Source of the DNA: Ardenticatenales bacterium
Lineage (GTDB): Bacteria > Chloroflexota > Anaerolineae > Promineifilales > UBA4811
Length of the DNA: 58,388 nucleotides
Reading direction: 5' to 3'
Assembly: GCA_030593075.1 (NCBI GenBank)
Contig: JAUVHW010000001.1
Location: 1 to 58,388 of the forward strand
The notes beneath the pieces were generated by a model. That model worked only from the letters and a program-made list of their open reading frames with translations. It searched no databases and was not told the DNA's origin. Position numbers and translations under genes: made by a program. Position 1 is the first letter of the stretch; every line of letters begins with the position of its first letter. Shown here piece by piece: positions 2,380 through 29,056 of this stretch.

Positions 2380-3174
2380 TCAGGCCTTGCGCGCCAGCCA
2401 GACCAGACCCGGCCGGCTCGGATCGTAGGGCAGGTAGCCAAAATCGTTCAATTGCCCTTCGATGACAAAGTCTGCCTGATAGAGCAAGGCCGCCACCTGT
2501 TCGACCGTGGGATGCCAGGCCCGATGTCGATACTCGCGCCGGCTACCGTCCCGGCCGATCACCACCGTGTGCGAGCGCACCGTCCGGCTCCTGGGGTCAA
2601 AGGAGTGCTGGTACAGCTCGGTGGTCTCCGGGGTTTCCGACTGGCTCTCTTCCTGGCGCGGCGGGGTCGCCTCCCAGTCCGGGGTGCCAAAGAGAAAGCG
2701 GCCGCCCGGCTTGAGGATGGCGTGCACCAGGTCCAGCAAGTGCAGCGCAGCGGCCGGGCCCTCGGTCCAGTCCAGCAGGTTGCTGCGGAACTGGACCACG
2801 GCGTCCACCGTGTCCTCCAGCACCAGATCACTCAGGTCGCCGTGCACCCAGGTGATGCTCACCGCTGCCTGCTCGCTGGTCTCCCGCGCCAGTTCTAGTA
2901 GGTCGGCCGAGGCGTCCAGGCCAATCACCCGCAATCCATAGTGAGCGAGCGCAATTGCGTGGCGTCCCCATCCACAGCTCAAGTTGAGAACCGTGTCGCC
3001 TTCCCGCACGTCGAGGGTCTGGCTGGCGAACTGGATGTCGGTAAAGGTATTGTCGGCCCATTCGCCCAACTGCCCGCCGGCGCGCAGCCAGCGCGCCCAG
3101 CTGGCGGCGCTATGCTCGTACCACGCCCGGTTCTCAATCAGTTGGTTGGCTGAGTTCTCTACGCTCTGCATCAT
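2380..3174 (-). CDS. class I SAM-dependent methyltransferase
   Basis: VLNLSCGWGRHAIALAHYGLRVIGLDAS (SAM-binding motif I plus the acidic loop) and ILKPGGRFLF. Confidence 0.85.
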   Translation of the reverse strand: MMQSVENSANQLIENRAWYEHSAASWARWLRAGGQLGEWADNTFTDIQFASQTLDVREGDTVLNLSCGWGRHAIALAHYGLRVIGLDASADLLELARETSEQAAVSITWVHGDLSDLVLEDTVDAVVQFRSNLLDWTEGPAAALHLLDLVHAILKPGGRFLFGTPDWEATPPRQEESQSETPETTELYQHSFDPRSRTVRSHTVVIGRDGSRREYRHRAWHPTVEQVAALLYQADFVIEGQLNDFGYLPYDPSRPGLVWLARKA

Positions 3175-8056: not shown

Positions 8057-9772
8057 CTAGAAATAGGTCGATAGGATCTTGTACAGTCCTCGAATGGTCT
8101 CGACCGTGCCTGCTCTGGCTTGGCCGCCGGTAGAGTCCGCCAGCTGCTGCAGCATGTCATAGTCCGCGTCCTCGCCGTAGGCTATGGCAAAGATGACTAC
8201 GCGCGCACCGCTCTGATTCTCACGCCTCAGTTTGCTCGTCAGGTCAGTAATGCTGATGTGCGAAGCGTTTTCCTGCCCATCGGTCATCACCACTATGGCG
8301 TTGATTCGGTCTGGGTCGTTCAGGCGCCGCAGCTGCTTGTAGGCAACCGTAACACCGTCCAGCAGGGCAGTGTCTCCTCCCGCCTCAAGCCCACCAATGG
8401 CAGCTTGCAGCTCCGGCCGGTTGTCCCCCAAGCGGTCCAACGGCACCAAGATCTCCACGTCGCCCCAGAACTCTATCAGGCCCACCCGCTCCTCGGCGCC
8501 CTCGATCTGATTGACAAACACCTGGAGCGCCTCCTTGACGTTTCTCAGTTTCTCCCCATCCATACTGCCGGATGTGTCCACCACCAGGTAGACGTTCGTC
8601 TTGCGCTTGATGACCCACCAGACGTTGCGTACCTGGTCGATGACCTGAGCGCCGGGGAGCTGCAGGGTAGTCCGTGGCTGGTCGGGGTCCACTCCGTTCT
8701 CCGCCGTAAGCGGAGAGTTCTCCATTGCGAGGTCTAGGCTCAGATCCACGGGGCGGTAGCCGTGGCTCATGACCTGCCTCTGGGCCTCGGGGGATTCAAG
8801 GAAGGCGGCGAACTCTTCAAATGCCAACCGCTGCTCGCTGGTCAGGCTGGGCAGTTCCAGCAATGCCAGCGGGTGGTCTTCCCACAACGAACCCTCGACC
8901 GGGTAGATGGCGACCAGGTCGTGGCCTTGCTCGTTCAGCCAGACCACCAGTTGCTCCTGGGCCACAAAAGCATCCACGTAATCCCGCCCGCGCTCGTTGA
9001 CTTGCTGCGCGATTGCCCACTCCCCTTCGCCATAGTAGCTTACCGTGGCTTCCATCTCCTGCAGCCGGGCGATGGTCTCTGGCTGCTGCAGGTCCTCGGG
9101 AGTCAGGCCCCGAGTGACACCGGCTGCAGCGTAGAACTCGGCCAACGTGGCTAGCAAGCCCGAGGCTGACGCAGTGGAGGGATGGCTCCAGCGGAAATCG
9201 GGGTCGGCGATGGCATGGTTGACCAGGCTGTTCCAGCCGATGGCGGTTTCCGGCCAACCCAGTTCAAGAGCCGCATCTTCCCACATCGCGATCACTACCG
9301 GGGAGATGGCATAGTGGCGGGTCTGGCCGACCAGAAACGCGGCTGGGTCGGCGACCTCTTCTGCGTACTGCTGATCGAGCTGATGGAGCCAGACGGAGCT
9401 GTCGGGGCTGATTGCCTGGAACTCACCGGTGCTCGCCGCCCGCAGCATCTCGTCCGGGTCCATGCGGACAGACTGCACGCGCATGGAGCGGCCGTCGGCC
9501 GACTCGCGGCCCATCTGGTTGAAGCCATCTACCAGGTGGGTGAACAGGATCTCCTTCTCCGGCGAGTAAGCCACCCTTAGGACGATGCCTTCGAACTCTG
9601 AATCCTTGAGGCCGGCGTCCTCCAGAACGCCAGCTGCGCCGGTGATCCCTCGCAGCAGTGCCCAGCACAAGCATCCGCCTGTGACCACCACCACCAGCAG
9701 GGCTATCAGAGCGCCGACGATAGCTGCCGACTGCCCTGGAGTGCGACCCGCGTGTTTCTGCGACTTTGCCAT
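8057..9772 (-). CDS. membrane-anchored solute-binding-like plus von Willebrand factor A (VWA) domain protein
   Basis: N-terminal TM helix (AAIVGALIALLVVVVTGG), a middle PBP-like region, and a C-terminal VWA domain with MIDAS residues (VYLVVDTSGSMDG ... VMTDGQEN). Confidence 0.85.
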   Translation of the reverse strand: MAKSQKHAGRTPGQSAAIVGALIALLVVVVTGGCLCWALLRGITGAAGVLEDAGLKDSEFEGIVLRVAYSPEKEILFTHLVDGFNQMGRESADGRSMRVQSVRMDPDEMLRAASTGEFQAISPDSSVWLHQLDQQYAEEVADPAAFLVGQTRHYAISPVVIAMWEDAALELGWPETAIGWNSLVNHAIADPDFRWSHPSTASASGLLATLAEFYAAAGVTRGLTPEDLQQPETIARLQEMEATVSYYGEGEWAIAQQVNERGRDYVDAFVAQEQLVVWLNEQGHDLVAIYPVEGSLWEDHPLALLELPSLTSEQRLAFEEFAAFLESPEAQRQVMSHGYRPVDLSLDLAMENSPLTAENGVDPDQPRTTLQLPGAQVIDQVRNVWWVIKRKTNVYLVVDTSGSMDGEKLRNVKEALQVFVNQIEGAEERVGLIEFWGDVEILVPLDRLGDNRPELQAAIGGLEAGGDTALLDGVTVAYKQLRRLNDPDRINAIVVMTDGQENASHISITDLTSKLRRENQSGARVVIFAIAYGEDADYDMLQQLADSTGGQARAGTVETIRGLYKILSTYF

Positions 9773-9796: not shown

Positions 9797-11005
9797 CTAC
9801 CGTCCGGCGACTCTCAAGTCAAAGAATCGCAGCAGGTCCTGCAGGACCTGACGGTCTGGAGGGCGCATGGCGGTGGTGCGCGGGATTACCGCCTGCGCGC
9901 CCTGTGACTGCCAGCGCGTAAAGAGACTGTCCGGGCCCTCCACCGGAACAGTGGGGCTCACCGGCCGCAGGCCGTAAGCCAGGGCCCGCTGCTGGATCGG
10001 TTCGGACAGCAGGAATTCCTCAAAGACGAGGGCTGAGTTCTTCTGGTCGGCGCTGGTCTCTGGCCCTATCCACACCGTGAATGGGAAATCGAACCAGGTG
10101 ACGTATTGTGGATACACAATGCGAAGCGGGTCGGCCCAGCGCGTCTGAATCCCCTCCATGTTGACCAACAGGTCGCTCTCGAGCAGCTGTCCCGCATCGC
10201 CGGTCGTATAGCCAAAGAGCGCCAGGTCCTGTACCGTGTACGCGCCGCCACTCAGGTCGCTCATTGAACTCATGATGTCGGCCATCCAGTCCTGAAAGTC
10301 GTTGCTGTCTACGTCGTCCACACTGACACTGGTCTTGTCGTAATACTCCCCCGCCATCGCCACCATGGCCCCCAGTCCGCTGGCGTTCTTGCGCGGGCTT
10401 GAGATGGCGAGCTTGAAAAAGCCCCACTCCTCGCTGCCGCCGAGCGCGTCCCAACCATCCGCGTTCATGGCTGCATCGTGGATCAGCTGCCAGTTTATGG
10501 CCCCCGCCTGTTCCAGCGCCTGCGCGCGACTCTCGTAGATTCCCCAGGCCAGCAGAGTGATGGCGATCGGCCGGCCGCGGTACTCGCCGTCCGTGAGGAA
10601 GACGTCCCGGCCGAGCCGCTCCTTGAAAGTGGCGTTGACCAATTCGGTGAGATAACGGCTGTCGGGAATCCAGGCAGTCGGGACCGGGTCCATTTCCTCG
10701 CGTTCGAATCTGCTCTTGGCCGCCAGACCGTCCATGGGGATGATGGTCACCTGGATGGTCTGACCGGTGTCTTCCAGGATGTGTTCTTCGCCGTTGAACT
10801 GGTCGGCCGCCTCCCGGACCCAGGGTTCGACCGATTGTGCCGCCACCACCGTGACTCTTACTGGCTGGCTGGTGTCTATCACCTCGCCGGCGATTGTCGT
10901 ATCTTGCTTGCCGAAGGGCAGGAGGTCAAAGACAACAACAGCCGCAACGACTAAAGCCAGCGCCAGACCGACGATGGCAAAGAAAACCCAGCGCGTACGG
11001 TTCAT
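9797..11005 (-). CDS. membrane-anchored solute-binding-like protein (paralogous to the N-terminal half of 8057..9772)
   Basis: N-terminal TM helix (WVFFAIVGLALALVVAAVVV) followed by a roughly 350-aa PBP-like domain. It has the same layout as the neighbour but lacks the VWA domain. Confidence 0.7.
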   Translation of the reverse strand: MNRTRWVFFAIVGLALALVVAAVVVFDLLPFGKQDTTIAGEVIDTSQPVRVTVVAAQSVEPWVREAADQFNGEEHILEDTGQTIQVTIIPMDGLAAKSRFEREEMDPVPTAWIPDSRYLTELVNATFKERLGRDVFLTDGEYRGRPIAITLLAWGIYESRAQALEQAGAINWQLIHDAAMNADGWDALGGSEEWGFFKLAISSPRKNASGLGAMVAMAGEYYDKTSVSVDDVDSNDFQDWMADIMSSMSDLSGGAYTVQDLALFGYTTGDAGQLLESDLLVNMEGIQTRWADPLRIVYPQYVTWFDFPFTVWIGPETSADQKNSALVFEEFLLSEPIQQRALAYGLRPVSPTVPVEGPDSLFTRWQSQGAQAVIPRTTAMRPPDRQVLQDLLRFFDLRVAGR

Positions 11006-17727: not shown

Positions 17728-20700
17728 GATGCGGTCTCCCGACCAGTCCAGCCACGCTCCCCCAGATTAACCCAATGACGGAGAGCAGTACGGCGACGCC
17801 AATCCCCAACGCCTGGGAGTCATTCAAGCTAGCTGCATTCCCCTGCTGGGGCTGTTCGCCTCCAGCCCCGTACCGAGCCGCACCGGAGACACCAGCTACT
17901 ATTCCTTCCAACTGCCTGGGGTCGTTCTGATAGTATGGAAGGGCCCAGGGTTCGAGGCCGGCGCTCACTCCGGTCACTATCGGCACCGCCTCCATGCCCG
18001 GCAGCCGCCTCGTCTGCTCGATCCACCCCGTCAGGTCGTCGCGCGCGGCAGCGAGAACCAGAACTAGATCTACATCGGCCAGCGTATTGGTGAGCCCGCC
18101 AGCTGCCGGGGCGACTCGAGCCAACCCGCTGCCCAGATAGTCGTTCGCAGGGAACACCTTCCAGGGATTGGCGGCAAAGGCCTGCACGCCAACCGCCCCT
18201 CCCGGAATGTAGCCCAGGTTGAGGTAGTCTTGGCCGTATGCATATCCATAGTCGTCGGCCAGCTCTTGCATCAGGCTCTGGGCGGTCTGAGGGCCGGCTG
18301 GCTTGGTGCTCACCGTCAGAATGCGCGCTCTGCGGTCCATCAGATGGCCCACCATGGTGGAGGAAATGGACCCGAGCTCGCCGGCCGTGGCTGGGGAGTA
18401 CTCAAAGGCAACCAGTGCTAGGGCTTCATCCGGGAGGTTTGCCAACACATCATGGGCTGAGCGAATCTGGTCCGCAATCGCCGGCTGGCCGCTGGCCGTA
18501 GGTAGCGGATTCCCCAGAATGACTGGCAGGAGCACTGCCAGCAACACCACGACGGCGATGACGACCTGCTCAATCCAACCCTGCGGACCGCTGGGCGGCG
18601 ACATTTCCCGTCTGGCTGCTGGACCGGCATGGACAATCTGTTCCAGGACCTGAGCATGACGACGCTCGTGCTCGGTAACGGCCAGCTCCTGTGCCGCTTC
18701 CCTCAAGGGGTGCGCGGGGATAGCTAGGTCGGCCGGCAGCGCCCCTCTCACGCCTACGAGCGGGCCTGCTGGTTCCTCCGGTTCGGGCTCGCCTGCTTCC
18801 GTCTCGTCGGTCTTGAGGGCCTCCAGCCAATCCGGGACCACTGCCTGCGAGAGCTCCAGCCCCTCCTCCGGAGCTAGATCCTCTTCGGCGAGTTCGCCCA
18901 GCCGGGCAGGGGCGCCTGAAGGGCGGAGCCAGTCAACGACCTCTGGCTCGACTGTCGCGTCTGGTTCCGGCTGCAGCCAATCTCGAGCCTCTGTCTCTCG
19001 GACGTCCGCTGGTTGCAGCCGTGGAGCCTGGGTGCTCACATCCGGACGCGGCGCGCTGGACTCCTGGGATGATTTCCAGACAGCAGATGCATCGGGTTCT
19101 GGCTGTCTAGCCACGTAGGGAGCCAGCAAGGCGTCCGCCGCCGGCGGGGAATCTCCACCGCCCTCTTGCTCAGCGAGCCACTCCGCGAATTCGGCTGCCG
19201 CGGATGAGTCGCTGTCCCCGGCAAGCCAATCTGGTAGCTCTGGAGGGACCAGCCCGTCTGTCGCCTTCCGCTTCTCGCTCGGGGTCGGCTCCTTAGCGGG
19301 CGGCGGTGCGATTGTGTCAAGCCAGTCTGATAGGGCCTCCGCCTCCGCTGGGGTGGGAGATGGTGCGCGGGACTCCTCGGCCGCCGGCTGGGACGTGAGC
19401 TGCACACGGTCGGCGCCCGTGTCGCTGGGTGGTAGGAGGTCCAGCAGTGCACGGTCCGGCATCTCCAGCGTACCGTCGTCGGGAGTGACCTCCTGGAGCC
19501 AATCCGCGAGCTTGTCGAACTCTGACACCTCCTCCCCGGCCGGTGGTCCAACCTCATCCAGTCTCTCTTGGACAGCTTCGGTGGGCCGCGCTTCCTCGAA
19601 CCGTTCAGGAAGCTCTTCGAGCCCGATGACCGCCCCGGTGGACGGCGGCAGGAGGTCTTCCGGTCTTTCCAGGACGGCTTCGCTGGGCCCCCCTTCACCG
19701 AACTGTTCAGGAAGCTCTTCCAGCCCGATGACTGCCCCGGTGGACGGTGCCCCAGGTGCCTGGGAGATTGCCGGTTGCGGTGCGAATTCCCTCAGCCAAT
19801 CCGGCACCTCGCCAGGCTCTATCTCGGCTTCGGTGGCTGAGGGCGCCCAGCCTGCCGGGGCTTGCAGGCTTTCCTCTTCGGGAGCAACTTGGTCGACCCA
19901 ATCCAGCAACTGACCGGTGTCAATGTCGCCTCTACCTACTCCAAAAAGTGGTGATATCTGTGATTCTACCCCGCCGGAAGGTGGGGGTGGCGCGGCCGGC
20001 TCACCTCCGGCATCAAGGGCAGGCGTCTCGGGAGCGGATTTCCGGGGAGCAAACTCGGCCAGCCAGTCTGGCACTGTTCCGGGTTCGATCTGGCCATCCT
20101 GGGCGGGCGCTGCGAGGTCCGGTGGCCCTTGCTGCTCATCATCGGTGGGAGCGACTTGGTCCACCCAAGCTATTATCTCGCCGGTGTCGATGTCGCCTCT
20201 GCCTACCCCAAACAGCGGCGGTATATCGGGCTGGGCCGGTTGAACTCCCTCTGGCGCCTCACTAGGTGCGATTTGGGCATCCGGAACAGGCGCTGCGGAG
20301 GTGATGCCGCGGGGCGCGAATTCCTCCAGCCAACTTGGCAGTTCGGCGGGGGGCAACTCGTCGCCGGCTGGGATCGTCAGGCCCTCTGGCGCTTCTGGCA
20401 TGCCTTCCTCGGGCGAGACCTGCTCCACCCAAGCCAGCAACTCACTGGTATCGACCTCTCCTCTACCTACTCCGTTGAGGGGCTCGACCTCTGCCACAAC
20501 TTGCTCGAGTGGTTCCTGCGTCCCTGTCGGCTCATCCTCGACCTCGGCGGCCGGGGGTTCCTCGGAGACGGCCTCTCCGGGTGCTAGGGCCGCGAGCCAG
20601 TCGGGCCCCTCGCCCGGTTCAGCAACGCCTTCCGCAGCTTGTGGAGGCACCGCCTCCTTTGCTGGTTCCAGTGTCCTGGCGGGCTCGGCCGGCACTTGGG

Positions 20701-23700
20701 CGACCGCAGGTGCTCCGACAGCTTCCGCAGGGCCAACCTCCTCCGCTGCGTCGGTGGCGGCCTGCCGGGGCGCGAACTCTTCCAGCCAGTCCGGTATTGC
20801 GCCGGGGGCCAGCCCGTCGTCGCCGGCCGCGATCGCCATGCCCTCTGGCATTTCTGCCATGTCCGCCTGGGGCCCGGCTTGGTCTACCCAAGCTATCATC
20901 TCGCCGGTGTCGACCTCTCCTCTGCCTACTCCGATGAGGGGCTCGACCTCTGCCACAACTTGCTCGAGTCGTTCCTGCGTCCCCGTCGGCTCCGCCTCGA
21001 CCTCGGCGGCCGGGGGTTCATCGGAGACGGCCTGTCCGGGTGCTAGCGCTGCGAGCCAATCTGGCACCTCGCCTGGCGCTACCACGCCCTCAAGCTCTAC
21101 GGCCGTCGGCTCCTTGGGGACGGCTTGTCCAGGCGCCAGCGCCGTGAGCCAATCTGGGACCTCGCCCGCTTCAGCGACACCTTCGGCAGCTGGCATCGTC
21201 AGGTCGGCCGGAGCCTCTGCGATGCCCTCCTGTGGTGCAATCTCGTCCACAAAGGCGCGCGGTTCGCTGGTGAGAACTCTGCCCTTACCTGGCTCAAGGG
21301 GAGATGGCTTCTCGGGTTCGACTTGGTCGAGTTCCACGAACGCCTCAGTGACTTCGGCCTCCGGCACTGGAGCCGTAAGGTCCTCCAGCGCCTGCAGTGT
21401 GTCCTCCTGTGGCGCGATTTCATCGACCCAGGCGCGCAGTTCGCCGGTGACGAGTCTGCCTGCGCCGAATTCGGGGGGAGTGGGCATCTCCTGCCCTGGC
21501 TGTTCGAGTGGCGGTGCTTCAGCCAGTTCGGGCGCAGCCTCGCTGGCCGCAGGCTCGCCGGCGGCTGCCGGACCTGCAGCCTGCTTGATGGGTTCTGGCG
21601 CCTCAGGGGCGGCCTCCCGGGGCGCGAAGCCCTCCAGCCAGTCTGGCAGTTCGCCCGGCTCGATCTCAACAGCCTCAGCTCCAATAGCCAGACCCTCTGG
21701 CATCTCTGTCACGACATCCTGGGGCTCTGCTTGGTCCACCCACGCCAGTAGCTCGGTGGTGTCGATCTCTCCTCTGCCTACTCCAATAAGGGGCTCGACC
21801 TCTGGTGCAGTTTCCTCGGCAGGTTCCTCCGCCCCCGTCGGCTCAGGCTCGGCCTCCACAGCTGGGGGCTCTTCGGAGACAGCCTGTCCGGGTGCGAGGG
21901 CCGCAAGCCAGTCGGGCACCTCGCCCGGTTCAGCACTCGGTTCAGCAACGGCTTCGGCAGCATCCTCAGGCGCCTCCTCCGCTGGCTGTAGGGCCTCAGG
22001 GGGCTCAACCTCGGCTTCGGCGGCCGCAAGGACCTGGGCTTCAGGAGGCGCCTCCTCCTCCGCAGAGACAGCCTGCCCGGGTCCGAGAGCCGCAAGCCAA
22101 TCGGGCACCTCTCCCGGTGCAGCAACGGCTTCGGCAGCTTCTGGAGCCGCCTCCTCCACTGGCTGCAGGGCCTCAGGGGGTTCAGCCTCCGCTTCGGCGG
22201 CGGCAGGTGCTTTGACATCTTCCGGCTGGGCAACCTGCTCCGCCGGTTCCGCCGCCTCAGGGGCGGCCGGGCGGGGCGCAGAGTCCTCCAGCCAGTCTGG
22301 CAGCTGGGCGGGTTCAGCCCCGGCCTCGTCGACCGCGATAGCCAAGCCATCTGGTAGCTCTGTCACCTCCTCCTTAGGCCCGACTTGGTCCACCCATGCC
22401 AGCAGTTCGCCGGTGTCGATCTCTCCTTTGCCTACTCCGCTGAGGGGCTGGACCTCTGGTGTAGTTTCCTCAGCAGGTTCCTGCGTCCCCGTCGGCTCAG
22501 GCTCGGCCTCTACAGCTGGGGGCTCCTCGGAGACAGCCTGTCCGGGTGCGAGGGCCGCGAGCCAGTCGGGTATCTCTCCCGGTTCAGCAACGGCTTCGGC
22601 AGCTTCTGGAGCCGCCTCCTCCGCTGGCTGCAGGGCCTCAGGGGGTTCAGCCTCCACTTCGGCGGCGGCAGGTGCTTTGACATCTTCCGGCTGGGCAACC
22701 TGCTCCGCCGGTTCCGCCGCCTCAGGGGCGGCCGGGCGGGGCGCATAGTCCTCCAGCCAATGTGGCAGCTCGCCGGGCTCGATCTCAACCTGCTCGGCTT
22801 CGATGGCTAAAACCTCTGGTGTCTCTGTCAGGTCACGTTGGGGCCCGACTTGGTCCACCCATGCCAGCAGTTCGTCGGTGTCGATCTCTCCTCTGCCTAC
22901 TCCGCTGAGGGGCCCGACCTCTGGTGTAGTTTCCTCAGCAGGTTCCTGCGCCGCCGTCGGCTCAGGCTCGGCCTCTACAGCTGGCGGCTCCTCGGAGACA
23001 GCCTGTCCGGGTGCGAGGGCCGCGAGCCAGTCGGGCACCTCGCCCGGTTCGGTGACAGCTTCGGCGACTTCTGAAGGTACCACGTCCTTTGCCGGTTCCA
23101 GGGCCCCAGGGGGCTCAACCTCCACCTCGGCGGCAGGCTCGGCCTCCGCTTCGACAACTGCAGCCTTCTCGACCGGCTCAGGGGCTTCGGCGCGCCGGTC
23201 CTCTGCCTCGGTAGATTCTCGAGGGGCAGCCTGCTCCATCTGTTCCGCCGCCTCGGCGAGGCCGGTCTCTACCTCGACGGCGACCTCCCCCTCGGCCTCC
23301 GCTTTGGCGGCTTCTGGAGCAGCAATCCCCTCTGCAGGTTGCGGGACCTCAGATGGTTCGGCTCTAGCCTCGACAGCGGGTTCCGCTGACTCGGTAGGGA
23401 CGGCGTGCCGGCGCATTATCTCGCCGAGCCAGCCTGTCTTCCCTTTGGGCTTGACCCTGATCTCGGTGACTTGCTCCTCTGGCCCGGCAGTGGGGGGCTT
23501 GGCTTCCTCGGTGGATACACCGTGCCGACGGACGATGTCGTTGAGCCAGCCTGTCTGTCCCGGGGGCACCGCCCGGACTCCAACCTCATCAGGTTTCTCG
23601 TCTGTCTCCTCCGAGCTTGGCTCAGGCTCCTCGGGGATACCGTGCTGGCGGACGATGTCGCCAAGCCAGTCCGTCTGTCCTGGGGGCGCCGCCCGGACTC

Positions 23701-26377
23701 CAACCTCATCAGGTTTCTTGTCTGTCTCCTCCGAGCTTGGCTCAGGCTCTTCGGGAATACCGTGCCGGCGGACGATGTCGCCGAGCCAGTCCGTCTCCAT
23801 GACCGGCTGAGCCGTGGCCTCTTTCGGCGGGGCCTCCCTCCGCGAGGGCCAGGCGAGCTGGTCGGGTGTCTCGGCGGGCCCGGGCTTGGTTCCGGCTGGA
23901 GGGGCTGGTGCCTCCGGGACAGTCTCCAGAGCAGTGCTGGAGTCTCGGGGGCGGCGCTTGCGTGGCTCGGGGAGTTTGTGCCGGCGCGCGATGTCGCCAA
24001 GCCAGTCGGTCCCCATGGCTGGTCGAGCCTTGAACTCTTTTGGCGGGACCTCCCCTAGCAAAGGCTCGGCGAGTTGGTCCGGGCCCTCGGCGGGCTCAGC
24101 ACTGGCCTCAGCCAGGGATTCCTCCGATATCGCCTCGGCTGGCGGAATCTCTGCGAGCGGTGGCTGCTCAGCAGGTGCATCCTCTATGTCGCCCGGCTCT
24201 ATCTCGGCCTTTGCCTCTACTTCCTCAATCATGGGTTCCGGGGGTGTCATCTCCCTCGGCTGCTCCGGCGCCTCGACCGTCTCGGGCTTGGGACCTGCCG
24301 CTTGGCTCTGGGCCTCCGTGGGCAGCCCCTCGGGCAGGACGATCTGCGCAAGCCACTCGGGCGCCTCAGCAGGGCTGACCTCGGTCTCCTCAGGCTGCGC
24401 CCTGGCCTCGGGCGATACAGCTTCCAGTGGAGCAATGTCTTCCAGCTTTTCTGGCGTCTCGGCGGGCTCGGCCTCGGTGGCAGCGGGCTTGCCCTGGACC
24501 TCGACGGGCATGGCCTCCGCAGCCAGTTCGGGCGCCTCCGCGGGCCCGACCTCGGCCTCGCCTGGCTGCGTCTCAGGTGCGGCGTCCGCCGGAGCAATCT
24601 CCTGAGGTGGTGCTGGTGCCTCGACGGGCTCGGCCTCAACGATCTCTGGAACTGCTCCTGAGGGTTCGGCCTCCGCAAAGGCTTCCGAGACGTCCTCAAC
24701 CACGGCTTCCACTGGGCGGGCCTCTGTCTCGACCTCGGCGGCCGATGGCTCGGCTGTTTCTGGCACCGTGATTTCTCGCAGCCACTCTGGTGCCTCATCG
24801 AGCTTGGTCTCGGCGGCGCTGGGCTCTGGTACCTGCTGCACGGCTTCAGCGGGCGCGGCTGTCTCGAGTGATTCTTGCTCCTCAGGCGGCTCGATCTGGA
24901 CCACCGGAGGCTGTGCAGCTTCTGCCGCACCTTCTGCCGCACCTTCTGCAGCCGTAATTCCCTGCAGCCAGCCGGCCACCTGACCAGGTTCGATTTCGGC
25001 GGCCGGAGGCGCCGGAGCCTCCAAGTCAGTTTTCCCGGCCGTGATCCCATCCAGCCAACTGGGCGCCTCGCTGCCCTGTGTCCCAGCCTGAATCGCGGTT
25101 TGGTCAGAACCGGCCTCTGGAGGAGCGGCCAGCGCTTCCGGCGCAGGTCCCAGCTTGTCCAGCCATGATGGCAATCCCCCAGGGCCGGCTGCTGGTTGCT
25201 CCATCGCCGCTCCCTCAAGCCACTCCATCAGCTCGCCGGTCTTGGCTGCTGTAGGGCCCGCAGGGGGCTCAGGTCTCTCTGGGGTCAAGTCCCGCGGCGC
25301 CATATCTTGGAGCCAGTCCGGTAGCTCGCCGGGTTCTACGGAGACGTCCCCCGTTGGTGACAGGCTGTCGGGCGCGGCTTGCTCGACCCATCCGCGCAGT
25401 TCGCTGATTTCAACCTTGTCCTGGCGCGGCGCAACTTCATCGACCCATCCCGTCAGCTCGCCGGTCTCGAGCTTGCCCTTGCGTACCTCGACGGGTGGAG
25501 GCTGTGGCTCGACCTCGGTGGCGGCCGGCTCGGCTTCTTCCGCCAGGGGTTCGTGCTCGGCTTCCGCGACTGCAATCTCCAGGTCGGCTGGGAACTCGAG
25601 CGCACCTTCGTGTGGCGCGACCTCGTCGATCCACGCTCGCAGTTCGCCGGTGAGGATCCTACCCTTGCCGATGTCGGGTGAGGAGGGAGCCTCCTCCTGG
25701 GATAGTTCCCGCAGCCATTGGGGTGTCTTCTGGTCGCTGTCTGCTTCTTGCTGGGTGGGACCATCCTCCCGTGCGGCCATCAGGTCGGGTGAGAGGTTGA
25801 CCAGCCAGTCCGGCACCTCGTCCTGGGCGGCTCCCGCTGAGCCCGCCTTGTCTGTTGCGCTTGGCGCTCTAGGTGCTTCTCCGGCGGGTGTGGGGATCTG
25901 CCGAGGCGGCGCTGTTGGCTGGCCCACACCTTCGCGGGGGGTGGCGCTTGCCTTTGCTATCCCGGGCGGTTCCGGCGTTTCGCGGAATCGGCTCAACGTA
26001 TCCTCGTCCGCCAGGGGCCCCGTTGTCCACGGCCCCGGTGTGGGCTTTGCTGGCGCTGCTGAGCTGGCTTCAGACAGGCCCGGCTGCAGGTCGGCCAGCC
26101 ACTCGGGCATGTCAGCAGCGGGCGATGGCTCTCTACTGGGCAGCGAGAGGCCGCGCACCGAACTCTCTTGGGCGTTCCGGTCTTGGGCCGGGCTACGTCC
26201 AGCTATTGGGATCATCCTGGCGCCGCATTCGTCACAGAAGACGTTGCTGAATGGGTTCATTGCGCCGCATGAAGGGCATCGTCCTGCCGTGTCAGGGGCT
26301 AGCTTCTCCCCGCAAGAGCCGCAGAACCTACTGCCCTCGCTGATGGGGCTTGCGCACTTGGGGCAACGCTGTGCCAT
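17720..26377 (-). CDS. giant (2885-aa) double-zinc-ribbon protein with an acidic Trp-motif repeat array and a C-terminal TM-loop-TM membrane module
   Basis: Uninterrupted 8.6-kb ORF. The N-terminus has two CxxC-N10-CxxC knuckle pairs (CPKC..CGSC, CPSC..CDEC). About 2500 aa are E/A/P-rich repeats. The last 286 aa (17723-18580) contain IEQVVIAVVVLLAVLLPVIL, a loop of about 235 aa, and ALGIGVAVLLSVIGLIWGSVAGLV. Confidence 0.9.
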   Translation of the reverse strand: MAQRCPKCASPISEGSRFCGSCGEKLAPDTAGRCPSCGAMNPFSNVFCDECGARMIPIAGRSPAQDRNAQESSVRGLSLPSREPSPAADMPEWLADLQPGLSEASSAAPAKPTPGPWTTGPLADEDTLSRFRETPEPPGIAKASATPREGVGQPTAPPRQIPTPAGEAPRAPSATDKAGSAGAAQDEVPDWLVNLSPDLMAAREDGPTQQEADSDQKTPQWLRELSQEEAPSSPDIGKGRILTGELRAWIDEVAPHEGALEFPADLEIAVAEAEHEPLAEEAEPAATEVEPQPPPVEVRKGKLETGELTGWVDEVAPRQDKVEISELRGWVEQAAPDSLSPTGDVSVEPGELPDWLQDMAPRDLTPERPEPPAGPTAAKTGELMEWLEGAAMEQPAAGPGGLPSWLDKLGPAPEALAAPPEAGSDQTAIQAGTQGSEAPSWLDGITAGKTDLEAPAPPAAEIEPGQVAGWLQGITAAEGAAEGAAEAAQPPVVQIEPPEEQESLETAAPAEAVQQVPEPSAAETKLDEAPEWLREITVPETAEPSAAEVETEARPVEAVVEDVSEAFAEAEPSGAVPEIVEAEPVEAPAPPQEIAPADAAPETQPGEAEVGPAEAPELAAEAMPVEVQGKPAATEAEPAETPEKLEDIAPLEAVSPEARAQPEETEVSPAEAPEWLAQIVLPEGLPTEAQSQAAGPKPETVEAPEQPREMTPPEPMIEEVEAKAEIEPGDIEDAPAEQPPLAEIPPAEAISEESLAEASAEPAEGPDQLAEPLLGEVPPKEFKARPAMGTDWLGDIARRHKLPEPRKRRPRDSSTALETVPEAPAPPAGTKPGPAETPDQLAWPSRREAPPKEATAQPVMETDWLGDIVRRHGIPEEPEPSSEETDKKPDEVGVRAAPPGQTDWLGDIVRQHGIPEEPEPSSEETDEKPDEVGVRAVPPGQTGWLNDIVRRHGVSTEEAKPPTAGPEEQVTEIRVKPKGKTGWLGEIMRRHAVPTESAEPAVEARAEPSEVPQPAEGIAAPEAAKAEAEGEVAVEVETGLAEAAEQMEQAAPRESTEAEDRRAEAPEPVEKAAVVEAEAEPAAEVEVEPPGALEPAKDVVPSEVAEAVTEPGEVPDWLAALAPGQAVSEEPPAVEAEPEPTAAQEPAEETTPEVGPLSGVGRGEIDTDELLAWVDQVGPQRDLTETPEVLAIEAEQVEIEPGELPHWLEDYAPRPAAPEAAEPAEQVAQPEDVKAPAAAEVEAEPPEALQPAEEAAPEAAEAVAEPGEIPDWLAALAPGQAVSEEPPAVEAEPEPTGTQEPAEETTPEVQPLSGVGKGEIDTGELLAWVDQVGPKEEVTELPDGLAIAVDEAGAEPAQLPDWLEDSAPRPAAPEAAEPAEQVAQPEDVKAPAAAEAEAEPPEALQPVEEAAPEAAEAVAAPGEVPDWLAALGPGQAVSAEEEAPPEAQVLAAAEAEVEPPEALQPAEEAPEDAAEAVAEPSAEPGEVPDWLAALAPGQAVSEEPPAVEAEPEPTGAEEPAEETAPEVEPLIGVGRGEIDTTELLAWVDQAEPQDVVTEMPEGLAIGAEAVEIEPGELPDWLEGFAPREAAPEAPEPIKQAAGPAAAGEPAASEAAPELAEAPPLEQPGQEMPTPPEFGAGRLVTGELRAWVDEIAPQEDTLQALEDLTAPVPEAEVTEAFVELDQVEPEKPSPLEPGKGRVLTSEPRAFVDEIAPQEGIAEAPADLTMPAAEGVAEAGEVPDWLTALAPGQAVPKEPTAVELEGVVAPGEVPDWLAALAPGQAVSDEPPAAEVEAEPTGTQERLEQVVAEVEPLIGVGRGEVDTGEMIAWVDQAGPQADMAEMPEGMAIAAGDDGLAPGAIPDWLEEFAPRQAATDAAEEVGPAEAVGAPAVAQVPAEPARTLEPAKEAVPPQAAEGVAEPGEGPDWLAALAPGEAVSEEPPAAEVEDEPTGTQEPLEQVVAEVEPLNGVGRGEVDTSELLAWVEQVSPEEGMPEAPEGLTIPAGDELPPAELPSWLEEFAPRGITSAAPVPDAQIAPSEAPEGVQPAQPDIPPLFGVGRGDIDTGEIIAWVDQVAPTDDEQQGPPDLAAPAQDGQIEPGTVPDWLAEFAPRKSAPETPALDAGGEPAAPPPPSGGVESQISPLFGVGRGDIDTGQLLDWVDQVAPEEESLQAPAGWAPSATEAEIEPGEVPDWLREFAPQPAISQAPGAPSTGAVIGLEELPEQFGEGGPSEAVLERPEDLLPPSTGAVIGLEELPERFEEARPTEAVQERLDEVGPPAGEEVSEFDKLADWLQEVTPDDGTLEMPDRALLDLLPPSDTGADRVQLTSQPAAEESRAPSPTPAEAEALSDWLDTIAPPPAKEPTPSEKRKATDGLVPPELPDWLAGDSDSSAAAEFAEWLAEQEGGGDSPPAADALLAPYVARQPEPDASAVWKSSQESSAPRPDVSTQAPRLQPADVRETEARDWLQPEPDATVEPEVVDWLRPSGAPARLGELAEEDLAPEEGLELSQAVVPDWLEALKTDETEAGEPEPEEPAGPLVGVRGALPADLAIPAHPLREAAQELAVTEHERRHAQVLEQIVHAGPAARREMSPPSGPQGWIEQVVIAVVVLLAVLLPVILGNPLPTASGQPAIADQIRSAHDVLANLPDEALALVAFEYSPATAGELGSISSTMVGHLMDRRARILTVSTKPAGPQTAQSLMQELADDYGYAYGQDYLNLGYIPGGAVGVQAFAANPWKVFPANDYLGSGLARVAPAAGGLTNTLADVDLVLVLAAARDDLTGWIEQTRRLPGMEAVPIVTGVSAGLEPWALPYYQNDPRQLEGIVAGVSGAARYGAGGEQPQQGNAASLNDSQALGIGVAVLLSVIGLIWGSVAGLVGRPHHG
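20300..23100 (-). repeat. intragenic super-repeat array, about 465-bp period, inside the giant ORF
   Basis: Six or more units encode ...GEVPDWLAALAPGQAVSEEPPAVEAEPEPTG...GVGRGEIDTGELLAWVDQ...EPGELPDWLE.FAPR.... The youngest pair, 22120-22294 vs 22585-22759, differs at 3 of 175 nt by manual alignment. Confidence 0.8.
23400..24015 (-). repeat. five basic DWLGDIVRRHG(I/V)P modules; the central copies are on a 120-bp period
   Basis: GTDWLGDIARRHKLP, ETDWLGDIVRRHGIP, QTDWLGDIVRQHGIP, QTGWLNDIVRRHGVS and KTGWLGEIMRRHAVP. The sequence starting at 23521, 23641 and 23761 aligns almost base for base. Confidence 0.8.
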
Positions 26378-26380
26378 GGG

Positions 26381-28429
26381 CTAGAACTCCCGCGCGCTCC
26401 CGGCTTCGTCGGGACCGGCGTCTGCAAGGGGGGCCGGCACTTCCGGCGCAGCTCTGTTGGGTCTTAGTTTGTCGAGCCAGGAGGGCAGACCACCAGTGTC
26501 GGCTGCGGGCTCCTCCGCCGCTGCTTGATCGAGCCACTCCATTAACATTCCCGTCTTGGCTGCGGCCGCCGGACTCATAGGCTCAGTTTCCTGGGGCGGC
26601 GCCATTTCTTGGATCCAGTCGGGTACCTCGCCGCGTTCTACTGTGGCGCCCCCCGCTGCTGCCTGCTCAACCCATCCGCGCAGTTCTCCAGTCTCGACCT
26701 CGTCCTGGCGCGGTGCGATTTGGTCGAGCCATCCAGTGAGTTCACCGGTCTCGACCTTGCCCTTATGCACCTCGGGCGCTGGAGGCTGTGGCTTGACATC
26801 AACGGCCGGCTCGGGTTCTTCCGTGACCGGAATCTCCAGGTGCGCCGGGGAACCGAGATCAGCTTCGTGGGGCGCGACTTCGTTGATCCACGAGCGCAGT
26901 TCGCCGGCGGGGATTCTGGCCTTGCCTGTGTCCGCCGAGGGTGGGGTCTTCTTGGAAGGTTCCTGCAGCCACTGAGGTGGTTCCTTGTCGCTCTCTGCTT
27001 CTCGTTGGGGCGGTCCCCCCTCCCGTGCAGCCTGTAGGTCGGGCGCGAGACTGACCTGCCACCTGGGCACCTCGTCCTGGGTGCCTGCCCTAGCAGGCTC
27101 CTCTGACGCTGCTTCCTCGAGCCACTCCATTGACATGTCGGTCTTGGCTGCGGCCGCCTCAGTCGGAGGCTCGGACCTGGCCGCCGGCGCTATTTCTTGG
27201 ATCCAGTCGGGTACCAAGCCGGGTTCAAGTGCGGGGTCCCCCAAAGCCGCCGAGCTGTCGGGCGCGCCCTTCTCAACCCACTCGCGCAGTTCTCCGGTCG
27301 CAACTCTGTCCTGGCGCGGTGCGATTTGGTCGAGCCATCCAGTGAGTTCGCCGGTCTCGACCCTGCCCTTGTGTACCTCGGCGGGTGGAGGCGGCGGCTT
27401 GACGTCCACTGCCGGCTTGGGTTGTTCGGCGACTGGAATCGCCAGGTTTGCCGGGAGATCGAGCTCAGCCTCGGTTAGTGCAACCTCGTCGATCCATGAC
27501 TGTGATTCGCCGGTGCTGATTCTGCTCTGGCGTGTGTCCGCTGAGGGTAGCGCCTCCTGGGAAGGCTCTTGCAGCCACTGAGGTGGTCCCTGCTCGCTGT
27601 CTGCTTCTCGTTGGGGCGGTCCGCCTTCGTTTGCAGAATCCAGATCGGGTGGCAGATCGGCCCGCCCCCTGTGCGCCTCGCCCTGGACGCCTGCCGGTGC
27701 AGGCTCCTCCACCGCGGGTTCATTGAGCCACTTCCTTAGCCCGCTGGTCTTGACCGCTGCATCTCCCGCCGCGGGATCGGATGTCGCCGGCGATGCCACT
27801 TCCTGGAGCCAACCGGGTACCTCCTCGGATTCGGGGGCGGTGTCCCCGCATGCCGCCGAGCTGTCGGGCGCGCCCTTCTCAACCCACTCGCGCAGTTCTC
27901 CGGTCGAGACTCTGTCCTGGCGCGGTGCGACTTCGTCGAGCCATCCAGTGAGTTCGCCGGTCTCGAGCTTGCCCTTGCGGACCTCGGCGGGTGAGGGACT
28001 CGCTTCCGCTGGCGCTGACGGCCCTGACATTTCACGGAGCCGGCGAATTGTGTCCTCGTCGGCCAGGGGGCCCGTTGTCCACGGCGTCGGCGTGGGCGTT
28101 CCTGGAGCTGCCAAGCTGGCCTCAGTCAGGCCTGGCTGCAGCTGGGCCAGCCAGTCGGGTATGTCGCCATCAGGCGTGGCTTCTTTACTAGGCAGAGAGA
28201 GGCCGCGAACCGAACTCTCTTGGGCTTCCTCGCCTGGAGCCGGGCCAGGTCCAGCTATTGAGATCATCCTGGCGCCGCAGTCATCACAGAAGACGTTATT
28301 GAATGGGTTCATGGCGCCGCATTTGGGGCATCGTCCTGTCGTGTCAGGGGTCAACTTCTGGCCGCAGGAGGGGCAGAACCTGTTGCCGTCGCTGACGGGG
28401 TTTGCGCACTTGGGGCAGCGTTGCGCCAT
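26381..28429 (-). CDS. 682-aa paralog of the giant protein: double zinc ribbon plus three Trp-motif super-repeats, no membrane module
   Basis: 48 of the first 60 residues are identical to the giant protein by manual alignment (MAQRCPKCA.P.S.G.RFC.SCG.KL.PDT.GRCP.CGAMNPF.NVFCD.CGARM). The rest is KGK(L/V)ETGELTGWLD..APRQD.V.TGELR.WVE..., VPDWIQE and PPQWLQEP. Confidence 0.9.
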   Translation of the reverse strand: MAQRCPKCANPVSDGNRFCPSCGQKLTPDTTGRCPKCGAMNPFNNVFCDDCGARMISIAGPGPAPGEEAQESSVRGLSLPSKEATPDGDIPDWLAQLQPGLTEASLAAPGTPTPTPWTTGPLADEDTIRRLREMSGPSAPAEASPSPAEVRKGKLETGELTGWLDEVAPRQDRVSTGELREWVEKGAPDSSAACGDTAPESEEVPGWLQEVASPATSDPAAGDAAVKTSGLRKWLNEPAVEEPAPAGVQGEAHRGRADLPPDLDSANEGGPPQREADSEQGPPQWLQEPSQEALPSADTRQSRISTGESQSWIDEVALTEAELDLPANLAIPVAEQPKPAVDVKPPPPPAEVHKGRVETGELTGWLDQIAPRQDRVATGELREWVEKGAPDSSAALGDPALEPGLVPDWIQEIAPAARSEPPTEAAAAKTDMSMEWLEEAASEEPARAGTQDEVPRWQVSLAPDLQAAREGGPPQREAESDKEPPQWLQEPSKKTPPSADTGKARIPAGELRSWINEVAPHEADLGSPAHLEIPVTEEPEPAVDVKPQPPAPEVHKGKVETGELTGWLDQIAPRQDEVETGELRGWVEQAAAGGATVERGEVPDWIQEMAPPQETEPMSPAAAAKTGMLMEWLDQAAAEEPAADTGGLPSWLDKLRPNRAAPEVPAPLADAGPDEAGSAREF
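26600..28000 (-). repeat. three ~605-bp (about 200-codon) tandem repeats inside the 682-aa ORF
   Basis: The K-G-[KR]-[LV]-E-T-G-E-L-T-G-W-L-D coding block recurs near 26750, 27355 and 27965. One copy of the same block occurs in the giant gene near 25470. Confidence 0.75.
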
Positions 28430-28432
28430 GGG

Positions 28433-29056
28433 TTATAGATCCCGCTCGCTGTGCGGCTGGTCAATCCCAACCAACACCCGTATGCCGGCTGCAATGGTGC
28501 CCAGTGCGACGCCCAGCAGCATACCCCGGGCTCCGGCCGCGGAAAAGACGTGGACCAGCCAGCAACGCACGTCGCCCGCTACCTGGGCCACCTCACCGGG
28601 CAGTGGCAGCGCAGCCAGGAGAACGAGGATGATGGTACCCACGAAAACAGAGGTGGGAAGCGAAGGTCGTTTTCGCATAGCGCGGAACGCGGCCGAGACC
28701 AGAAAAACGGCGAGCAGCGAGGCTGTCGCTGCCTCCAGCGGTGCCAGCACGAAACGAAACACCCAAGTAACACCCGCTCCGCTTGGCCCTTGGTGTTCAG
28801 CAGCGGCAACTGCTATCACAACTACAAACGAAAAGAGGAGGGCGGTGCTGTAGGGCCAGTCTCGTTCTTGGCTTACAATGCGGCGCCCGTGAACGACCAG
28901 CAAGTTGACGACGCCCAACACAAACGCCGCGGCCGCCAACGCGGCCGCCCAACGGACGAAGAGAAGATGGACCCGGAATCCCGGGCCGACGAAATACCCG
29001 AGCAGCGTTGCCCCGCCTGACGCGACGGCAACCACTGTGGGGACACGCTGCCTCAC
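28433..29056 (-). CDS. polytopic integral membrane protein, unknown family
   Basis: Five to six hydrophobic helices. Only 3 nt separate it from the downstream zinc-ribbon gene. Confidence 0.8.
   Translation of the reverse strand: MRQRVPTVVAVASGGATLLGYFVGPGFRVHLLFVRWAAALAAAAFVLGVVNLLVVHGRRIVSQERDWPYSTALLFSFVVVIAVAAAEHQGPSGAGVTWVFRFVLAPLEAATASLLAVFLVSAAFRAMRKRPSLPTSVFVGTIILVLLAALPLPGEVAQVAGDVRCWLVHVFSAAGARGMLLGVALGTIAAGIRVLVGIDQPHSERDL

Follow-up and report, generated by a model that had tools for sequence, protein, structure and literature searches.

In a stretch of 58,388 nucleotides from an Ardenticatenales bacterium (Chloroflexota, Anaerolineae; contig JAUVHW010000001.1, positions 1 to 58,388), hereafter referred to as the window, two adjacent genes encode related proteins of very different length. 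P0001 (26381..28429, minus strand; 682 codons plus TAG) encodes a protein of 682 amino acids, here called the paralog, and the neighbouring P0002 (17720-26377, minus strand; 2885 codons) encodes a protein of 2885 amino acids, here called the giant. On the basis of sequence comparison, we identify P0001 as a true tandem duplicate of part of the giant gene, namely its first ~430 codons. The duplication is apparently lineage-specific. The copy seems to be under purifying but relaxed selection, which is compatible with a function, and we slightly favour the view that P0001 is a selected and functional soluble copy of the scaffold head.

The scaffold family to which the giant belongs is widespread in Anaerolineae (88 of 401 sampled genomes of the class) and has remained unstudied. 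A keyword search gave no titles on the scaffold family and the literature holds no mention of DUF6754, a domain encoded in the same operon; in Pfam there is no family for the scaffold beyond the zinc ribbon. Scaffold proteins of the Chloroflexota (Anaerolineae/Ardenticatenales), e.g. P0003-P0007 of ~1000 amino acids, are uncharacterised and consist of a zinc ribbon, an acidic linker with LPDWL-type motifs (W motifs) and an anchor in which an alpha/beta domain is flanked by transmembrane segments (TM-alpha/beta-TM). Their genes lie between membrane protein genes of the 207-aa type and of the 242-aa type, by a gene for a GlmL/MutL-like ASKHA ATPase. The paralog resembles them in its N-terminal double zinc ribbon, the near-invariant SVRGLSLP, the first PDWL motif and the acidic, proline-rich array of W motifs, and its gene likewise comes right behind the 207-aa gene, to which it is joined by stop-CCN-ATG. 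It differs from them by the missing C-terminal anchor, by being an extra second copy and by modules of the GELxxW[VI][DE] type, which are unmatched outside this genome. The TM-alpha/beta-TM anchor is present in nine of nine full-length orthologues read and absent from the paralog. With three of the five features of the scaffold family, and without the anchor and the single-copy state, the paralog is to be seen as a derivative of the family that has been truncated, and not as one of its regular members. The genome offers a natural dissection of the scaffold, in which an anchor-less head and one motif class stand beside the full-length protein.

Homology of the paralog and the giant

Counted from the N-terminus, residue identity between the paralog and the giant is 48/60 and then 99/135, and the first 405 nucleotides of the two genes are 81% identical. 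BLASTP with composition-based statistics gave an E value of 3e-87 for the collinear N-terminal alignment and of 9e-34 for a further repeat copy. As these values are adjusted for composition, the likeness of the two proteins reflects homology and not mere compositional similarity. A first-pass annotation, made from the letters and open reading frames (ORFs) only, had counted the same 48 matches in the first 60 residues and had taken the next segment to be collinear; the alignment bears out both statements, and all motifs listed in that annotation are present in the paralog. On the side of the giant, the duplicated segment corresponds to codons 1-428 of the gene (25094..26377, minus strand), which encode a zinc ribbon, a linker, one A and one B half-module (defined below) and a tail.

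The head comprises residues 1-148 of the paralog. Residues 1-58 (28256..28429, minus strand) form a double zinc ribbon with eight cysteines in four CxxC pairs. Pfam DZR (PF12773) matches residues 5-52 with 41.9 bits against a gathering cut-off of 27.3 (E 1.1e-10), and the N-terminus of the giant also scores above the gathering threshold of this model (E 1e-9). Taking the DZR and Zn_ribbon models together (PF12773, PF13240, PF13248), residues 3-52 of the paralog are above the gathering thresholds; the models stand for small domains of a generic kind and cover 8% of the paralog. In alignment A1, which comprises 10 family members, C5, C8, C19, C22, C34, C37, C48 and C51 are invariant, and all eight are kept in the paralog. 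The zinc ribbon is followed by the motif ESSVRGLSLPS and the first PDWL motif (residues 71-97; 28139..28219, minus strand), within which columns V74-P80, W93 and L94 are nearly invariant in the same alignment. Every invariant column of the family is intact in the paralog, the eight cysteines and SVRGLSLP included.

Junction of the tandem duplication

The boundaries of the duplication are marked by a relic of the upstream gene. In four family relatives, the gene of the 207-aa type ends ...CACAGCGAGCGGGAGnnnTAACCnATGG and leads directly into the zinc-ribbon gene. The tail consensus of these relatives, AGCGAGCGGGAGNNNTAACCNATGG, has exactly two sites in the 58-kb window with one mismatch each, one before the ATG of the paralog and one before the ATG of the giant, at a chance expectation of zero. 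The former belongs to the 207-aa membrane-protein gene itself, as its original 3' end (AGCGAGCGGGATCTATAA; 28433..28450, minus strand), and is the source of the latter, a junction relic (AGCGCGCGGGAGTTCTAG plus CCC; 26378..26398, minus strand) in which the final five codons of that gene are copied together with its stop and the spacer. Relic and resident tail are identical at 16 of 21 positions and in frame. The relic forms the last 18 nucleotides of the paralog, stop included (AGC GCG CGG GAG TTC TAG, i.e. SAREF*), so that the junction peptide ends ...DEAGSAREF, and it also provides the GGGAG ribosome-binding site of the giant. Homology between paralog and giant extends to giant codon ~428 and stops right before the relic.

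The arrangement shows that a segment of ~1.3 kb was duplicated in tandem, beginning with the last five codons of the 207-aa gene and ending at about codon 428 of the ancestral scaffold gene. In the upstream copy the scaffold head reads straight into a borrowed SER-E-x-stop tail, and the downstream copy is complete. A duplication with these boundaries predicts a truncated upstream copy and a complete downstream copy, as seen. The paralog lacks the TM-alpha/beta-TM anchor because the duplication ended at codon ~428.

Repeat modules and their amplification

The remainder of the paralog is built of repeats. DNA autocorrelation of the gene peaks at lags of 606 (55% identity) and 1212 (38%), and a repeat search found families spaced 606 nucleotides apart with 79-89% identity; Tandem Repeats Finder (TRF), whose longest period is 500, misses the 606-bp repeat. 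Half-modules A and B were defined on segment 182-397 of the giant, where A comes first and B second. The A half of the giant contains VPDWL, PPQWL and GKGRILTGELRAWIDEVAP, and the B half contains KGKLETGELTGWVDEVAPRQD, ELRGWVEQ, LPDWLQDMAP and LMEWLE. The paralog has the order head-B1-A1-B2-A2-B3-tail, with three B halves and two A halves, which amounts to 2.6 copies of a unit of 202 amino acids (606 bp). The first-pass annotation had described three repeats of ~200 amino acids with a period of ~605 bp. The periodicity stands; the number does not, since there are 2.6 units and not three full ones, and A1 is degenerate.

All modules lie on the minus strand. B1 (KGKLETGELTGWLDEVAPRQD..GELREWVE..VPGWLQE..RKWLNE) comprises residues 149-246 (27692..27985) and is followed by the degenerate A1 (residues 247-350; 27380..27691), B2 (residues 351-448; 27086..27379), A2 (residues 449-552; 26774..27085) and B3 (residues 553-644; 26498..26773), the last with an in-frame deletion of 18 nucleotides as compared to B1 and B2. 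The tail (residues 645-677, LPSWLDKL...; 26399..26497) is homologous to giant residues ~398-428 and represents the last homology to the giant. The collinear N-terminal segment enters B1 through a join specific to the paralog, ...SAPAEASPSPAEVRK. Giant residues ~145-293, i.e. the spacer and the A half, have no counterpart between the head of the paralog and B1.

Among themselves the modules of the paralog are 79-80% identical at the DNA level, as compared to 72-74% with the modules of the giant. Since the paralog modules are closer to each other than to those of the giant, the 606-bp amplification is placed inside the paralog and after the gene duplication. In the upstream copy, ~150 codons were lost in frame between the head and B1, and the 606-bp unit was then amplified to 2.6 copies. 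Tandem gene duplication followed by internal amplification, as initially proposed, is well supported by the mapped junction and the module identities. Partial tandem duplication and subsequent unequal crossing-over is an evolutionarily ordinary mechanism.

The modules contain the motif class G[KR]G-x-[ILV]-x-T-G-E-L-x-x-W-[VI]-[DE]-x-[VI]-[AG]-P, which occurs eight times in the paralog and many times in the giant. No match to this G[KR]G...GELxxW[VI][DE] class was found in the orthologues read or in a search of 1.84 billion proteins. With 2885 amino acids the giant is more than twice as long as the longest orthologous open frame (530-1393 amino acids) in the 88 genomes of the class. The lineage has expanded the number of W motifs both in the giant and via the extra copy.

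Predicted properties of the product

A 19-residue Kyte-Doolittle scan of the 682 amino acids revealed no hydrophobic or membrane helix in the paralog; the maximum is 1.01, as compared to 2.92 in the first TM helix of the giant. Aspartate and glutamate account for 18% of the residues and proline for 13%, and the net charge is -64. Of the 20 tryptophans, 19 are found in xxW[LIV]xx contexts. A shallow alignment of seven sequences was used for AlphaFold2, whose model is confident at residues 1-58 only, with predicted local distance difference test (pLDDT) values of 80-85 there and below 50 for the rest; the short helices outside residues 1-58 are mostly predicted on W motifs. The product of P0001 is therefore predicted to be cytoplasmic, very acidic and mostly disordered. 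The first reading of the gene as one that stops without a hydrophobic helix, and of its product as soluble and anchor-less, agrees with these predictions.

Distribution of the copy

The scaffold gene is present as a single copy in 86 of the 88 family-bearing genomes of the class sample, and the tandem pair is found in the present genome only. Absence from relatives, which the first-pass annotation had named as a finding that would refute its interpretation, is thus what the available relatives show: the pair occurs in none of the other family-bearing genomes, although the available relatives are all outside the genus. In a collection of 5.8 billion clusters P0001 is a singleton. A word-based search therein gave only anchored orthologues with at most 47% identity, and the orthologues that cover most of P0001 have 29-34% identity. 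Exact look-up of P0001 revealed no other occurrence, and scans of genome contigs and metagenome contigs with P0001 no further copy. Given one genome of 88 and a singleton in the protein collections, the paralog does not belong to the conserved design of the system.

When 1.84 billion representatives were searched exhaustively with HMMER, no entry but P0001 itself scored below 1e-30. The other listed hits have their best-scoring stretch in the N-terminal ~300 residues, except P0085, which is one weak match to VPDWLQEIAP-type repeats. Because this search found no other module match, barring the weak P0085, the GELxxW[VI][DE] modules appear to be lineage-specific.

Three genomes contained candidates for a second copy or for a soluble head. 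The candidate second family copy in G291 was rejected, since it is an unrelated DZR protein of 305 amino acids encoded elsewhere in that genome (L032, 4941-5858, plus strand). It combines a double zinc ribbon like that of the family with one PIPEWLQRL motif and with what, judged by eye, resembles a MerR-type helix-turn-helix; its location outside the operon places a head with a W motif also in a soluble, possibly DNA-binding context. In the same genome a masked N/X stretch is found just upstream of the operon (L033, ~2700-3100; C54). Natural split soluble heads in G004 and G002 were likewise rejected, as the pieces are collinear and separated by frame shifts within one gene, one in G004 (L029, ~10250-10310) and two in G002 (L030, ~9814-9835 and ~8912-8930). 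In both genomes the first break comes shortly after the zinc-ribbon head. Both are MFD metagenome-assembled genomes (MAGs), which we take to be long-read assemblies. Sequencing errors are the likelier, though unproven, cause of these frame shifts; that the gene is genuinely divided, with the head soluble and the remainder anchored, is less likely.

Selection on the copy

The ratio of non-synonymous to synonymous substitution rates (dN/dS) was determined by the method of Nei and Gojobori (NG86). Between paralog and giant, dN/dS is 0.27 for the zinc ribbon, 0.37 for residues 1-135 (dS 0.43) and 0.28 for the last repeat copy (dS 0.78). Between units within the paralog, a comparison in which both lineages lie inside the paralog, it is 0.49-0.60 (dS 0.41-0.75), and synonymous and non-synonymous differences between these units deviate from each other with a Fisher p of 0.007. 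Even in the worst case, in which all 14 non-synonymous differences of the zinc ribbon are placed on the paralog, they are too few under neutrality (Poisson P 0.003).

Marks of a pseudogene were looked for as well. There are no stops over 682 codons, and all insertions and deletions are multiples of three. When neutral drift was simulated with 10% substitution, a level lower than half of the divergence observed, at most 1% of the runs retained a stop-free frame. These comparisons suggest that the head has been maintained by selection, and the repeats as well, though to a weaker degree.

Proposed function and alternative explanations

If the copy is functional, the paralog may bind whatever recognises the head (zinc ribbon and SVRGLSLP) and the W motifs in the giant, but off the membrane. 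As the most likely mode of action, it would thereby titrate or buffer the partners of the giant against the tethered scaffold; competition or buffering is the simplest consequence of a paralog that is untethered. As a whole, such a competitor mechanism is tentative, and so is the regulated or stoichiometric interplay between partner or competitor and giant that the first-pass annotation had proposed. Equally speculative is the more specific proposal that the paralog is a selected regulator, free and multivalent and held at a fixed ratio to the 2885-aa scaffold by translational coupling, which would titrate cytoplasmic clients of the scaffold, possibly the ASKHA ATPase module of the operon, off the membrane. 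By analogy, it might do in bacteria what microProteins or decoys do elsewhere, and so control a scaffold of multivalent short linear motifs.

Truncated paralogs that act as decoys or dominant negatives are known from plant and animal microProteins (LITTLE ZIPPER, Id proteins) and from soluble decoy receptors. The paralog resembles them in its origin by duplication and truncation and in keeping the presumed interaction parts without the part for localisation or output. Unlike microProteins, it is not small (682 amino acids), and it is bacterial, lies in the same operon and is found in one genome. Arrays of multivalent short linear motifs in disordered adaptors are likewise known from eukaryotes, e.g. 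the DPW, DPF and WxxF motifs of endocytic adaptors. Many short aromatic motifs, an acidic disordered chain and short helices predicted at the motifs only are common to these arrays and the paralog, which differs in having no homology to them and in residing in a bacterial operon. A functional copy would mean that the partners on which head and W motifs act are diffusible, and it could itself serve as a soluble bait, already at hand, to find these partners.

Possible, though not what we would expect, is that P0001 is a by-product of the duplication. It would then be translated only as a passenger of the operon, its frame kept by the risk of translation uncoupling or Rho-type polarity, and the protein would be neutral or slightly deleterious and slowly decaying. 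Several observations are in line with such a decay and weigh against a functional copy. The paralog is a singleton known from one MAG only. When the changes in the head are polarised with eight outgroups, 11 fall on the paralog and 5 on the giant, about twice the rate, although the difference is not significant. Among these changes is P57S, where proline is found in each of the eight outgroup sequences. Half-module A1 is the most degenerate, with the W of its VPDWL motif lost, GELRxW changed to GESQSW and VAPHE to VALTE, and the VPDWL motif is lost or damaged in both A1 and A2. The dN/dS values between internal units, 0.5-0.6, are only moderately below 1. Within the paralog, extra conservation on W motifs as compared to spacers is not significant (69% versus 60%, p 0.11). 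The ribosome-binding motif before the paralog reads GGGAT, as compared to GGGAG in relatives and the giant. Finally, the open frame could persist only because its loss would expose the giant and the genes downstream to polarity in transcription or translation.

Avoidance of polarity explains the absence of stops; it does not explain the missense constraint on the head, where the low dN/dS of the zinc ribbon and the worst-case estimate given above both speak against neutrality. A decaying by-product is also at odds with the intact eight cysteines and SVRGLSLP, with the survival of the copy over a synonymous divergence of 0.4-0.8 and with a segment that was amplified 2.6-fold and kept. Bacterial genomes have a deletional bias, and useless DNA is usually deleted over such spans. 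Should P0001 nevertheless be a by-product, it would be a clean example of how a duplication boundary makes a truncated gene within an operon that ends with the stop codon of its neighbour. Either way, the event is lineage-specific and evolutionarily ordinary.

The main functional alternative to competition is a co-scaffold, in which the free copy joins the tethered giant via the zinc-ribbon heads or via shared multivalent partners and adds W-motif valency. The two proteins have the same head and motif classes, are encoded by adjacent genes and are probably co-translated, and the expansion of W motifs in the giant (2885 versus 530-1393 amino acids) suggests selection for more motifs in this lineage. 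However, self-association of the zinc ribbons is hypothetical, more valency is attainable, and was attained, within the giant itself, and the present data fit competition equally. We consider a co-scaffold distinctly unlikely.

Very improbable is an assembly artefact, in which the contig joins diverged scaffold versions of two populations or mis-resolves repeats: the MAG has 422 contigs and 3% contamination and the region is repeat-rich, with exact repeats of up to 55 nucleotides in the paralog and 89 in the giant, but paralog and giant share no exact match longer than 26 nucleotides, too short to bridge at usual final k-mer sizes, the 31-mers of the junction are all unique in the genome, genes of the operon are absent from all other contigs of the MAG, the units are 11-36% diverged and each individually resolvable, and the junction has the anatomy of a biological tandem duplication, with a diverged, in-frame tail of the 207-aa gene (16/21), rather than a shared k-mer, placed right after the homology to the giant. 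As exact repeats reach 55 nucleotides, there is slightly less certainty about how many copies of the 606-bp unit are present.

Operon setting and further observations

P0001 lies in an operon of co-directional genes which encode, in this order, a 123-aa ORF, a DUF6754 membrane protein, a 207-aa membrane protein, the paralog, the giant, a 242-aa membrane protein, a GlmL/MutL-like ASKHA ATPase (PF13941) and a 368-aa protein. In an NCBIfam scan of the operon proteins, the ASKHA protein matched only GlmL-like models, and these below threshold. No homology was found between the anchor domain of the giant and the upstream DUF6754 protein. P0001 and both of its neighbours share one frame, with a stop and CCC between each pair, and the giant starts three nucleotides after P0001, past TAG and CCC. 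Since the paralog is situated inside the operon and three nucleotides upstream of the giant, the two are probably co-transcribed and translationally coupled. Promoter-like sites of the operon were found at 30235-30152, and no terminator-like signal above background between its genes.

Antisense ORFs of 376-815 amino acids were observed opposite the two repeat genes, at window positions 20301-22748, 27723-28853 and 25155-26384 (all plus strand). Their translations are rich in serine, glycine and alanine and look like composition artefacts of the reverse strand; ORF length alone is therefore weak evidence in this region.

The same operon, with a single scaffold gene of ~700-1050 amino acids, is found in the family relatives and in one distant member of the class. 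The end of the 207-aa-type membrane gene is conserved as ...DRPHSERE-x-stop, and in all family relatives a stop, CCN and ATG join this gene to the zinc-ribbon gene in the same frame. The GGGAG of the relatives and the giant is located ~10 nucleotides upstream of the zinc-ribbon ATG, in the place where the paralog has GGGAT (window positions 28426-28450 and 26374-26398; loci L028, L029, L030 and L031).

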